Positions 22,595 through 46,477 are shown, counted from the first letter of the stretch. The stretch: 64,000 bases of DNA from a candidate division WOR-3 bacterium (GCA_965648905.1 CBFGIT010000006.1:32001-96000), one strand, 5' to 3'. Made by a program: numbers and translations. The notes: generated by a model from the sequence alone, not told the origin.

Positions 22595-22669
22595 TGGGGC
22601 GTCGTTCAACTGGCAGGACCCAGGACTTTGGATCCTGTTATGAAGGTTCGAGTCCTTCCGCCCCAGCCA
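22595..22669 (+). tRNA. tRNA-Gln (TTG)
   Basis: Acceptor stem TGGGGCG/CGCCCCA, anticodon arm CAGGA-CTTTGGA-TCCTG, T-loop GGTTCGAGTCC, encoded CCA. Sits in the usual ispE-tRNA-Gln-prs context. Confidence 0.97.
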
Positions 22670-43774: not shown

Positions 43775-44365
43775 ATGTCCTATGTCCAGGGCATGCACAT
43801 TGCCGACCTTGACCTTGATGGTTTGGCTCTGCTTGTTCTTGAGAACAGGTTGTGTTTTGTCTGTTCGTTGCTTGAGGACGAGCGCCGGTCTGATTTCGCC
43901 GGGGTCGAGTGTCAGGTGCGGCCTGAGGCCCTGAGACGGCTGGTGGCCGATGAGCGGTCCGGCGTGAAGGTGGCGGTGCAGGATGGCAGGGTTGTCGGCT
44001 ATGCCGTGTTCGGCCGGCCCGAGTTGTTCCCGAGCCGGACGCGCCTGGGGTTTGAGTTCGACGACACCGGGCTGCTCATCGCCGCGCTCTACGTGACCGA
44101 GCCGGCAAGGCAAGCCGGTGTTGACGTCATGTTGTTGTTGGAGATAATGGACTTTGCCATTGAGGCAGGGTACGAGATTGTCCAGGCGGTCTGTCGGACT
44201 GATGACCGGTCAGGCCCGGAAGGTCCGATACGCCTGTTTGAGGCCGCTGGGTTCAGATTGACCGAGCCGGCTAACGGCTTGGCAAAGGCTGAGATTAGTC
44301 TGGAGGAATGGGCCGAGCGGCAGGAGACCGACGACGAGGAAAGCGGCCCGAATTCGGACATATGA
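43775..44365 (+). CDS. GNAT-family N-acetyltransferase
   Basis: DGRVVGYA, IAALYVTEPARQAGV and LFEAAGF motifs. Upstream TTGACT-N16-TAGAGT at 43737-43764. Confidence 0.78.
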   Translation: MSYVQGMHIADLDLDGLALLVLENRLCFVCSLLEDERRSDFAGVECQVRPEALRRLVADERSGVKVAVQDGRVVGYAVFGRPELFPSRTRLGFEFDDTGLLIAALYVTEPARQAGVDVMLLLEIMDFAIEAGYEIVQAVCRTDDRSGPEGPIRLFEAAGFRLTEPANGLAKAEISLEEWAERQETDDEESGPNSDI

Positions 44366-44369
44366 TATT

Positions 44370-44457
44370 GAGGGGCACGGAGTCAGCGAAGTTACCAAGG
44401 CTCGGTCACCTTATTCGACCTCGGATTCGCGAGCTCTCGTGACCCCTCTTTCCTTTT
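44370..44457 (+). other. Conserved ~80-nt hairpin element, copy A (candidate ncRNA or cis element)
   Basis: Long bulged stem GAGGGG-CACG...CGTG-A-CCCCTC with apical GGCTCGGTCACC and a T-rich tail. Homologous to copy B. Confidence 0.55.
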
Positions 44458-44473
44458 GCTGGTGAGCCGGGGC

Positions 44474-44923
44474 ATGTCTTCTCAATCCGAGACCCGCCAC
44501 CAGTTTCGCGTTCGCACTGCAACAGTCGAAGTCAACACCCGGGGATTCTGTGACGTCATCGACATCACTGCCGAAGTGCGACGCGCTGTCGCTGGTTCCG
44601 GCATCCGCGATGGCATAGTATGCGTAGCCAACCCCGGCTCAACCGCGGGCATCACGACCATTGAGTTCGAGGCGGGTGCGGTCGAGGACTTGAAGGAGGC
44701 GCTCGAGAGGATTGTGCCGCAGAACCGACGTTACCGTCACGACGATGCGTGGCAGGACGGCAACGGCTTCGCCCATCTGCGCAGCGCACTGGTTGGAGCG
44801 TCGAGGTCGCTCCCGGTGAAGGATGGCATGCCGGTTCTTGGCACCTGGCAGCAGGTGATATTGGTGGACTTCGATAATCGGGACCGGCGTCGGCAGTTGG
44901 TCGTCACAGTGGTCGGAACATGA
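44474..44923 (+). CDS. yjbQ: YjbQ/UPF0047 family protein
   Basis: DIT, GSTAGITTIE, YRHD..GNGFAHLRS and LGTWQQVILVDFD motifs. Confidence 0.92.
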   Translation: MSSQSETRHQFRVRTATVEVNTRGFCDVIDITAEVRRAVAGSGIRDGIVCVANPGSTAGITTIEFEAGAVEDLKEALERIVPQNRRYRHDDAWQDGNGFAHLRSALVGASRSLPVKDGMPVLGTWQQVILVDFDNRDRRRQLVVTVVGT

Positions 44924-45038
44924 AAAGAACCAAGACCGGCGCATGATGATTTCGCCGTGAGGCTGTACCAAGTTGTGAGCAGGGGTCTTGGCGCGCTTGG
45001 CCCAGAAGTCCGAAGCCGGGCTGCATCAGACTCGCACG

Positions 45039-45124
45039 AAAAAAGTGAGAGTCACGAGCAGTCCAGTGTCACGGCAATCTTGGTGACCGAGCCGATTCTT
45101 GATACCGAACTGTCGTGCTCTCAC
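45039..45124 (-). other. Conserved ~80-nt hairpin element, copy B (candidate ncRNA or cis element)
   Basis: Minus strand GTGAGAG-CACG...GGCTCGGTCACC...CGTG-A-CTCTCAC-TTTTTT. Confidence 0.55.
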
Positions 45125-45211
45125 TAATCTTAGACGGCCCGGGCGGCAGAAAGGTTCGCCGGCTTTCCCGGCCGTTTGGTCACCAAGAGTATTCTAGCCC
45201 CATTTACTGAG

Positions 45212-46477
45212 ATGTCAAGATTTCACGACCTCGCAATAGTGGGCGGAGGAGCGGCCGGACTGGCTTGCGGCGTGGCCGCGGTACGTCTTGGGCTGAACGT
45301 GGTAATCATCGAGCGCAACTCAACTTGCGGCCGTAAGCTCGCCCTGACCGGTGGCCGCAAGTGCAATTTCACCCATGCTGAGACGCCTCATGCCATGGTG
45401 GCCCGGTTCGATTGCGCTCCTGAGCGGATTATGCCTTTGCTACGCCGATTCCCGTATCAACGGATAGTTAAGTTCTTCGAATCGCTGGGGATAGCTGCCC
45501 GCATTGACGATGAGGGCTGCGTCTGGCCCTCGCGGGCCGATGCTTCCGGAATCGTTGATTCCCTGGTCGGTGAGCTTGTCCGCGCTCGAACAACCGTGAT
45601 TGTCGCAGCACGGGTGGTCGGGCTTGATGAAGGTTGGTCGGTGAGGCTTTCTGACGGTCGGCGCATCAATGCCAGAAACGTCTGTCTTGCAACTGGCGGC
45701 GCGAGCTATCCTCATACTGGTTCGACTGGTGACGGGCTGAGCCTGGCAGGTCGACTCGGGCTGGTGACCGTGCCGTGGTTTGCTGCCCTTGCCTCGCTCA
45801 GAACCAGGGAGAACCTGCGCGAGCTTGCCGGCATCTCTCAGCCGCGCGTGGACATGTCGCTTCTGGTCGGACCGAGCCGGGAGTCGCTTCAGGCCGTGCG
45901 TCGTGCTCAGGGCCACTTCATCTTCGCCCACGAGTACATATCCGGCTCCAGCGTTCTGAACCTATGCGGGTTTGCGGCCCGGGCTCTGGCCCAGTGTCGG
46001 CACGTCGTACTGCAAGTTGACTGGGCGCCGGACACGCGCCAGGATGAACTTGCCGCCCAACTTGCAACTGCCCGAGTCAATCGGCCCAGGGCAAAGCTTG
46101 CAACTGTCCTGGCGAGCTTTGTCTCACGGCGACTGGCGACCCGGCTTTGTCAGATGGTTCGGGTTGACCCGGACCGGCTGATGGCCGGATTGACGCGCCG
46201 CGATGCCGAGGCGATTGTGCGTGCGCTCAAGAGCACCGACCTCGAAGTCGTTGGTACTGAGCCGCTCGAGCGCGCCACCGTTGTCGGCGGAGGAGTGAGC
46301 CTTGATGAGGTTAACCTGCTGACCATGGAGGCGAAGCGGCGTCCGGGACTCTATCTTGCCGGCGAGATGCTCGACCTCTGGGCCGAGACCGGGGGGTACA
46401 ACCTGCACTTTGCCTGGGCATCAGGCATCGCTGCGGCTGAGGCAGCAGCGGGTCGGGCGCGGGCGGAGACCGCTTAG
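45212..46477 (+). CDS. HI0933/BaiN/YhiN-family flavoprotein
   Basis: IVGGGAAG, GRKLALTGGRKCNFT, LATGGASYPHTGSTGDG, GGV and GGYNLHFAWASG motifs. Confidence 0.92.
   Translation: MSRFHDLAIVGGGAAGLACGVAAVRLGLNVVIIERNSTCGRKLALTGGRKCNFTHAETPHAMVARFDCAPERIMPLLRRFPYQRIVKFFESLGIAARIDDEGCVWPSRADASGIVDSLVGELVRARTTVIVAARVVGLDEGWSVRLSDGRRINARNVCLATGGASYPHTGSTGDGLSLAGRLGLVTVPWFAALASLRTRENLRELAGISQPRVDMSLLVGPSRESLQAVRRAQGHFIFAHEYISGSSVLNLCGFAARALAQCRHVVLQVDWAPDTRQDELAAQLATARVNRPRAKLATVLASFVSRRLATRLCQMVRVDPDRLMAGLTRRDAEAIVRALKSTDLEVVGTEPLERATVVGGGVSLDEVNLLTMEAKRRPGLYLAGEMLDLWAETGGYNLHFAWASGIAAAEAAAGRARAETA

Follow-up and report, generated by a model that had tools for sequence, protein, structure and literature searches.

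We identified two hairpins, here termed A and B, that lie in inverted orientation on either side of the yjbQ gene in a stretch of 64,000 nucleotides (nt; the window) from a candidate division WOR-3 bacterium (GCA_965648905.1, CBFGIT010000006.1:32001-96000), and which, to judge from covariance models and comparative sequence analysis, are homologous, being two diverged copies of one small structured RNA. We propose that B is probably a stand-alone small RNA (sRNA) of ~85–90 nt, made under stress from an alternative-sigma promoter of the type found before groES and hsp20 and acting in trans, and that A is an old, diverged duplicate of it. The first-pass annotation of the window, made from the sequence alone, had listed a family of small structured RNAs among its readings of the pair, and this is the one that about 100 homologues and covariation now support.

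As read in the sequence, the layout is the one that annotation had described: in each hairpin, the 3′ side of the CACG/CGTG helix carries a bulged A, the distance from CACG to CGTG being 62 nt in A and 61 nt in B; each apex carries the exact 12-mer GGCTCGGTCACC, of which only four exact copies occur in the whole 3.0-Mb genome; and each stem is followed by a T-run, giving the tail TTTCCTTTT in A and TTTTTT on the minus strand in B. The outer stems do differ by compensatory changes (GAGGGG/CCCCTC in A as against GTGAGAG/CTCTCAC in B), and the hexamers TATGAT of A and TAAGAT of B each stand 9 nt before CACG. The statement that ATT follows the 12-mer is only loosely true, since it begins 2–3 nt past it. 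The folding check that had been proposed found both copies to be far more stable than shuffled sequence, with −38.8 kcal/mol for A (z −3.3) and −42.7 kcal/mol for B (z −5.0), none of 200 shuffles being as good in either case, and the minimum-free-energy and centroid structures agree. A covariance model (CM), R1, built from 22 aligned copies, matches A at 58.6 bits and B at 91.5 bits. Because A sat in its seed, we built a further model, R2, from 24 B-type copies taken from other genomes only, so that neither window copy contributed to it. With R2, the score of B is 92.2 bits (E 2e-23) and that of A 36.4 bits (E 9e-8, for the 64-kb window); the latter match shows A to be a true, diverged homologue of B.

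The consensus fold is a single long hairpin with a stem of about 30 base pairs (bp), in which an outer stem, the bulged A and an invariant GCACG/CGUG helix are followed by a single-base bulge and a middle stem of 10 bp; the whole is capped by a large, asymmetric apical region, which includes a short CGGU/GCCG helix besides the invariant GGCUCGGUCA. In a MAFFT-based alignment of the 22 copies, 95.5% of the cells are paired and compensatory changes occur in 12 of 24 pairs; in a model-fitted alignment of 64 distinct copies, 93.1% are paired and 12 of the 24 pairs have changed on both sides. The latter alignment holds 168 double-changed cells versus 50.6 in shuffles, and has a covariation score of 0.340 versus 0.161, a value reached by none of 500 shuffles; control structures slid by 1–3 columns pair only 31–49% of the cells. 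The GCACG/CGUG-A-C helix stays invariant while the adjoining stems covary, and across 15 genera neither loop nor helix changes in sequence while the flanking protein genes diverge to 45–70%. The coding strand can be read from the wobble pairs: G-U cells exceed A-C cells (176 versus 25), and pairing is 93.1% on this strand versus 83.0% on the opposite one. This excess therefore places the RNA on the minus strand for B and the plus strand for A, in keeping with the earlier remark that G-U pairs favor the minus strand for B, on which the B region also folds better (−42.7 versus −37.9 kcal/mol). A small-peptide reading of B was ruled out by the lengths of its orthologues, which vary by 1–4 nt and not by multiples of three. 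An attC-like reading was rejected as well, on the ground that no R″/R′ core sites were seen when the sequence was read by eye, with no formal test.

A search of the window's own genome (G000; in what follows G-numbers denote genomes, g-numbers genera) and its relatives with covariance models, as had been suggested, recovered only A and B from G000 itself with R1, and at least one copy from 43 of 44 genomes of the family, including all 29 of high quality. The copy number according to R1 is one in small genomes and 3–11 in genus g10. None of 22 genomes from four sister families of the order has a match to R1, and in a phylum-wide sample all 14 family genomes carry copies versus none of 136 genomes from other families (strict CM filters being applied for samples above 40 genomes). 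BLAST against 40 relatives likewise found the B hairpin at 73–87% identity in 22 of 24 same-family genomes, where it is better conserved than the adjoining yjbQ gene. In a pattern scan of deposited genomes, a search of 80 of the 98 matching stretches gave at least 18 CM matches, in 17 of the 80 loci; 17 of these matches reach at least 61.9 bits and the other has 28, and the remaining loci were chance matches in GC-rich genomes. That no known RNA family had been recognized in the pair at first was borne out by scans against Rfam 15: in the whole window there is only a transfer RNA at 22595 and no family for A or B, and a permissive scan of 44200–45300 has mir-4887 as its top match, at 24.4 bits versus a threshold of 70. 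Identity with the signal recognition particle RNA or with 6S RNA was excluded, matches to RF00169 (C25:25086-25184, 59.1 bits) and RF00013 (C3:11348-11523, 59.8 bits) being found elsewhere in the genome.

Two conserved blocks precede B-type copies at a fixed distance, GAACCnT spanning −22 to −16 and GTCTAA spanning 0 to +5. GTCTAA is present at five or more of its six positions in 35 of the 43 copies that score at least 60 bits, with GAACCnT 22 nt upstream of the box, and it ends 2–5 nt before the CM match start, i.e., 4–7 nt before the stem, the match starting 2 nt before the first stem pair. With a position weight matrix (PWM) drawn from 34 B promoters of other genomes, the B of the window is the top match genome-wide (24.0 bits), and high scores are also reached by intergenic sites that precede groES, hsp20, a Clp AAA+ ATPase and a 1-Cys peroxiredoxin (genes assigned by Pfam). 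A comparison across the family was decisive: all 30 groES loci have (C/T)GAA(T/A)C-N16/17-GTCTAA, 90–177 nt ahead of the gene, and 28 of the 29 hsp20 loci with enough upstream sequence have it 28–77 nt ahead, the identities of both genes being confirmed by Pfam. As B, groES and hsp20 have this motif in common, B would belong to the heat-shock-type regulon of the family, and GAAnC-N17-GTCTAA appears to be the heat-shock promoter of the lineage. The first-pass annotation had granted each hairpin a −10-like box of its own. This stands for B with the amendment that TAAGAT overlaps the conserved GTCTAA box of an alternative-sigma promoter and not a sigma-70 −10 box; for A it fails in this genome. 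The sites in G000 itself lie at C20:35294-35323 (groES) and C10:61028-61057 (hsp20), and across the family groES has a long leader, of 90–177 nt.

At the other end, 36 of 44 B copies have a run of at least three T residues past the stem. The gene that comes next after a canonical copy is convergent (yjbQ, an AsnA-like gene or an unknown open reading frame [ORF]), with its stop 0–50 nt off, and there is no downstream gene on the strand of the RNA. This convergent neighbor points to B being a stand-alone gene with a shared terminator; with a shared stress-type promoter, its own terminator and no co-directional gene downstream, it has the makeup of a stand-alone sRNA dependent on a stress sigma. 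Separately, the start codon of the HI0933-like gene overlaps with a strong sigma-70-type site ~60 nt upstream of B; the two hexamers of the site are unchanged in G001, a genome of the same genus (L048:1408-1435), where the spacer differs. From its sequence and position, the site may be a second promoter of B or may belong to a bidirectional promoter shared with the HI0933-like gene.

Table 1. Features of the locus in the window, and sigma factor genes found beside groES in relatives.
Feature	Position	Strand	Basis or remark
GNAT acetyltransferase gene	43775..44365	+	Pfam PF00583; stop codon 4 nt before hairpin A
A, diverged paralogue of B	44370..44457	+	Hairpin 44370-44448 and U-rich tail; CM matches, A-type alignment, U-run
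Apical motif of A	44399..44410	+	12-mer identical to that of B
yjbQ (UPF0047)	44474..44923	+	Pfam PF01894; between A and B
B, predicted stand-alone small RNA gene	45037..45124	-	CM match 91.5/92.2 bits, covarying structure, orthologues in 43/44 family genomes
Parts of B	45124-45045 (hairpin), U-run to ~45037	-	Predicted 5′ end ~45124
Apical motif of B, GGCUCGGUCA(CC)	45082..45093	-	First ten bases kept in nearly every copy
Predicted promoter of B	45130..45159	-	GAACC 45157-45153, 17-nt spacer, GTCTAA 45135-45130; same type as the groES and hsp20 promoters of the family
Putative second promoter of B, sigma-70-type	45191..45218	-	TTGACA-N16-TAGAAT; 11/12 consensus versus 0.4 expected
HI0933-like flavoprotein gene	45212..46477	+	Pfam PF03486; divergent from B
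Candidate sigma beside groES, G003	L258:2592-3179
Candidate sigma beside groES, G016	G016:C1:223113-223697
Candidate sigma beside groES, G002	G002:C1:138348-138914
Candidate sigma beside groES, G046	G046:C2:8594-9175

The A copy of the window matches neither the heat-shock-type nor the sigma-70 promoter. Its TATGAT overlaps the GNAT stop codon, and the A copy of G001 lacks this hexamer (GCAGCAGACT), so we regard it as a coincidence. Since A has no promoter match, starts 4 nt past the GNAT stop and is separated from yjbQ by 25 nt, a gap in which no promoter would fit, the simplest reading is that it forms the 3′ end of the GNAT transcript, with a terminator that would limit read-through into yjbQ. 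It would thus double as the end of the GNAT messenger RNA (mRNA) and, we infer, as an attenuating leader of yjbQ. A-type copies form a subfamily (15 aligned, from six genera), in which 14 of the 15 have a U-run of at least three residues past the stem, usually with yjbQ coming next. GNAT directly precedes the hairpin in G000, G001, G014, G015 and G005; in genus g10, all nine distinct A-type copies have a sigma-70 promoter, TTGACA-N17-TAnnnT, with its end ~7 nt short of the stem. Several genera share the order GNAT-A-yjbQ-B-HI0933, and the most constant neighbor is the HI0933-like gene, which in 24 of 29 loci adjoins the best copy of the RNA. The presence of yjbQ, which it had been suggested to follow through relatives, is variable: in G001, A and B stand tail to tail, 156 nt apart and with no gene between them, and UPF0047 genes are located elsewhere in all five genomes checked (G001, G004, G014, G003 and G012). 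On these gene orders, yjbQ is a variable passenger and no obligatory partner. The idea of a cis-regulatory leader and antisense pair for yjbQ is therefore borne out only in the position of A before that gene; it does not fit G001 and the displaced UPF0047 genes, nor the canonical B, which has no downstream gene on its own strand.

Further copies occur in other contexts. Those that we term C-type have no U-run and lie 7–19 nt before the start of a gene for a Metal_resist/LTXXQ (Spy/ZraP-like) periplasmic protein, in an operon with the order extracytoplasmic function (ECF) sigma, zf-HC2 anti-sigma, membrane protein, hairpin and Spy-like gene, which is seen in genera g5, g13 and g15. Two weak copies have a heat-shock-type promoter upstream and a DUF1801 gene downstream. 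Hence, an upstream and co-directional leader position is true of the A-type, C-type and DUF1801 copies and not of the universal B copy. All 44 family genomes have kept the operon itself, comprising the ECF sigma, zf-HC2 anti-sigma, membrane protein and Spy/ZraP-like genes, and several of them have hsp20 within 2–4 kb of it. G000 has the operon (C33:15599-17673) without the hairpin; in the 3′ untranslated region (UTR) of its Spy-like gene (C33:17680-17740) is a mini-hairpin, CTGACGGCTCGGTCAG, which carries the invariant 11-mer of the sRNA just before the terminator.

As to the sigma factor that might read the GTCTAA promoters, a gene of ECF size adjoins groES on the opposite strand in G003, G016, G023, G002 and G046 (genera g2 and g3 among them), and we consider its product a candidate on the strength of this gene neighborhood. 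In three g12 genomes (G048, G020 and G045), the match to the groES-adjacent sigma contains one in-frame TGA. Two further ECF factors were rejected as the cognate sigma, namely that of the Spy-like operon, whose own promoters are sigma-70-like, and that at C2:144144, which has a similar promoter but is present in only 18 of 44 family genomes. Directly upstream of the latter and its anti-sigma (C2:144144-145216), G000 has the site TGTAACATT-N-CGTCTTA (C2:144103-144132), probably an autoregulated ECF promoter.

Taken together, we propose that B would be transcribed on the minus strand from GAACC-N17-GTCTAA, jointly with the chaperones, when heat or protein damage puts the cell under stress; that its transcription would begin at the foot of the hairpin, with the same hairpin and U-run terminating the transcript; and that the invariant bulged-A helix and the apical GGCUCGGUCA would form the working surface, acting in trans by mRNA pairing or by protein binding. 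The duplicate A, lacking a promoter here, would be made along with the GNAT message. Regarding the two modes of action, we entertain base pairing tentatively, at somewhat less than even chances, and deem protein binding rather unlikely. Neither Hfq nor CsrA has a match in G000, which is 99.6% complete. The complement of the invariant-loop 11-mer occurs 27 times in G000 versus 11 in the control and is similarly raised in relatives; a complementary 11-mer in the GNAT gene was rejected as a target, as it is not conserved.

Several observations weigh against this proposal. The start site, 3′ end and stress induction of B, like its action in trans, are things that we infer. The covariation scores come from a 64-copy alignment (A6) fitted to the model, and the relatives in it are not independent, though the 22-sequence MAFFT-based alignment gives an agreeing picture. 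PWM matches are not enriched in the genome (37 at 13 bits or more versus 51 in the reversed control), and neither is the strict promoter pattern (4 sites versus 13 in the control), so that the regulon rests on the conserved sites and not on counts. The groES-adjacent sigma evolves fast, and its best match in G000, C52:720-1256 (an ECF by Pfam), is only 29% identical and thus of uncertain orthology. The search for a target found the complement of the invariant loop only in coding regions at fixed codon phases, or in the RNA genes themselves, with none at a start codon, and pairing with the groES leader is not significant (mean z −0.54 over 14 genomes). Finally, the hairpins that serve as 5′ leaders (C-type and DUF1801) are as compatible with a role in cis or in protein binding as with one in trans.

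It is this last point that underlies an alternative that takes the hairpin for a recognition module of some RNA-binding protein or ligand, placed as a cis leader on yjbQ, Spy-like and DUF1801 mRNAs, with the B copies being stress-induced decoys in the manner of Csr/Rsm or GlmY. The hairpin does recur in four contexts, i.e., stand-alone, behind a sigma-70 promoter before yjbQ, without a U-run before the Metal_resist/LTXXQ gene, and behind a heat-shock-type promoter before DUF1801, and an invariant helix amid covarying neighbors suggests sequence-specific recognition of that helix. However, at least 20 genomes have a single copy, B alone, with no detectable cis copy, and decoy action on homologous leaders thus could not be the general function. 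Moreover, searches of G000 found neither CsrA nor Hfq, the copies show no consistent linkage to a candidate binding protein, and no alternative fold appears in the minimum-free-energy and centroid structures, nor is there an expression platform, the hairpin itself being the terminator. We accordingly consider this alternative unlikely, and it is on account of the single-copy genomes that we commit to a trans-acting, stress-induced sRNA as the general function of B. A more specific version, in which, in a phylum that appears to lack Hfq and CsrA, the module serves as a post-transcriptional branch of the heat-shock response and the free, stress-made B competes with the identical modules borne by yjbQ, Spy-like (within the ECF-sigma operon) and DUF1801 leaders for a protein that recognizes the bulged-A helix and GGCUCGGUCA, strikes us as a quite speculative possibility; if true, it would couple cytoplasmic protein-damage signaling to envelope-stress genes.

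The remaining explanations deny the hairpins a function as RNAs in their own right. Were A and B merely long, partly bidirectional intrinsic terminators between convergent genes, conserved by descent, one would understand why a U-run follows the stem in both, why A comes so soon after the GNAT stop, and why B lies between convergent genes, with the hairpin, in many genomes, directly against the stop codon of the gene facing it. Yet a terminator has no call for B's own conserved promoter at a fixed distance, common to groES and hsp20, and no gene on the B strand could use B as a terminator, the upstream neighbor being divergent. The invariance of loop and helix across 15 genera with diverging protein genes also speaks against it, as do the extra copies with their own promoters (including a tandem in G004) and the C-type copies lacking a U-run, and we regard it as very improbable. 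The first-pass suggestion that the hairpins are the ends of a mobile element carrying yjbQ, akin to a repetitive extragenic palindrome (REP) or a miniature inverted-repeat transposable element (MITE), draws on their inverted orientation around one gene and on the absence of yjbQ from between them in G001. It is hardly credible for a genome of 3.0 Mb with just two copies, in a gene order syntenic across genera and with no transposase nearby; further, the arms are only ~50% identical outside the conserved motifs, BLAST does not link A to B, and compensatory changes in both keep the RNA pairing, with a strand bias.

A search of the literature and Rfam 15 found no description of this RNA. It is, in our estimation, previously undescribed, and the closest known kind is the stress-sigma-dependent sRNA, none of whose representatives compared here is related to it in sequence, fold or partner genes. 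Such sRNAs are known mainly from Proteobacteria, and we know of no RNA regulators described for this uncultured lineage. A close parallel is offered by the CcsR1-4 or "cuckoo" RNAs of Rhodobacter sphaeroides and relatives, which are RpoHI/RpoHII-dependent, multi-copy hairpins with a conserved loop motif, some of them arising from an mRNA 3′ UTR and some having sigma-70 promoters (PMC8034643). Like these, the present family comprises homologous small hairpins with a conserved loop, variable copy number, a heat-shock-type promoter and a mixture of 3′-UTR and sigma-70 copies (PMC8034643). It differs in having one long hairpin versus two, the loop GGCUCGGUCA versus the anti-Shine-Dalgarno CCUCCUCCC, and neighbors that are HI0933-like, yjbQ and GNAT genes in place of a DUF1127 partner; there is no relation in sequence or by Rfam, Hfq was not found, and the phylum is another.

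The sigma-E-dependent sRNAs (MicA, RybB and MicL of Escherichia coli; FoxI and FoxJ of Fusobacterium) are similar in being stand-alone genes in a stress-sigma regulon. Unlike them, B has a promoter common to the cytoplasmic chaperones groES and hsp20 and not to outer-membrane repair genes, and no porin or lipoprotein target was identified; unlike MicA, RybB and MicL in particular, its predicted 5′ end is paired in the outer stem, leaving no free seed, and Hfq was not found. CpxQ is an sRNA cut from the 3′ UTR of cpxP. The C-type copies are likewise tied to the gene of a CpxP/Spy-family periplasmic chaperone, in the same operon as the Spy/ZraP-like gene; however, they lie 5′ of that gene and not in a 3′ UTR, are confined to three genera and have no sequence similarity to CpxQ. 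In contrast to the CsrB/RsmZ sponges, the family has no repeated GGA motifs, and CsrA was not found in G000. With ordinary terminators and REP elements it shares a GC-rich stem followed by a U-run and an intergenic location, and it differs from them in its ~30-bp stem with an invariant loop, its own promoter, its family-wide presence, its covariation and its mere two copies.

Thus, what emerges is a well-supported and testable sRNA family, with about 100 copies, strong covariation and a defined promoter and terminator, that could serve as a model for the duplication of sRNA genes into new transcriptional contexts. An Hfq-independent example in which one module is reused as a stand-alone gene, a 3′ end and a 5′ leader would broaden the picture of stress sRNAs. 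By-products of the analysis are what appears to be the chaperone promoter of the lineage, GAAnC-N17-GTCTAA, and the candidate sigma encoded beside groES.

Local multiplication of B-type copies was seen in two genomes. In G004 (C11; L039:1372-1736), three copies in tandem lie between the HI0933-like and GNAT genes, all with a U-run; the second and third each have GAACC-N17-GTCTAA, and the first matches GTCTAA at only three of six positions. In G054 (C69:34000-40500; L163), three further copies within 3 kb have an extended upstream sequence in common, and one of them is followed by an ORF that, by eye only, resembles a Cas6-type protein.

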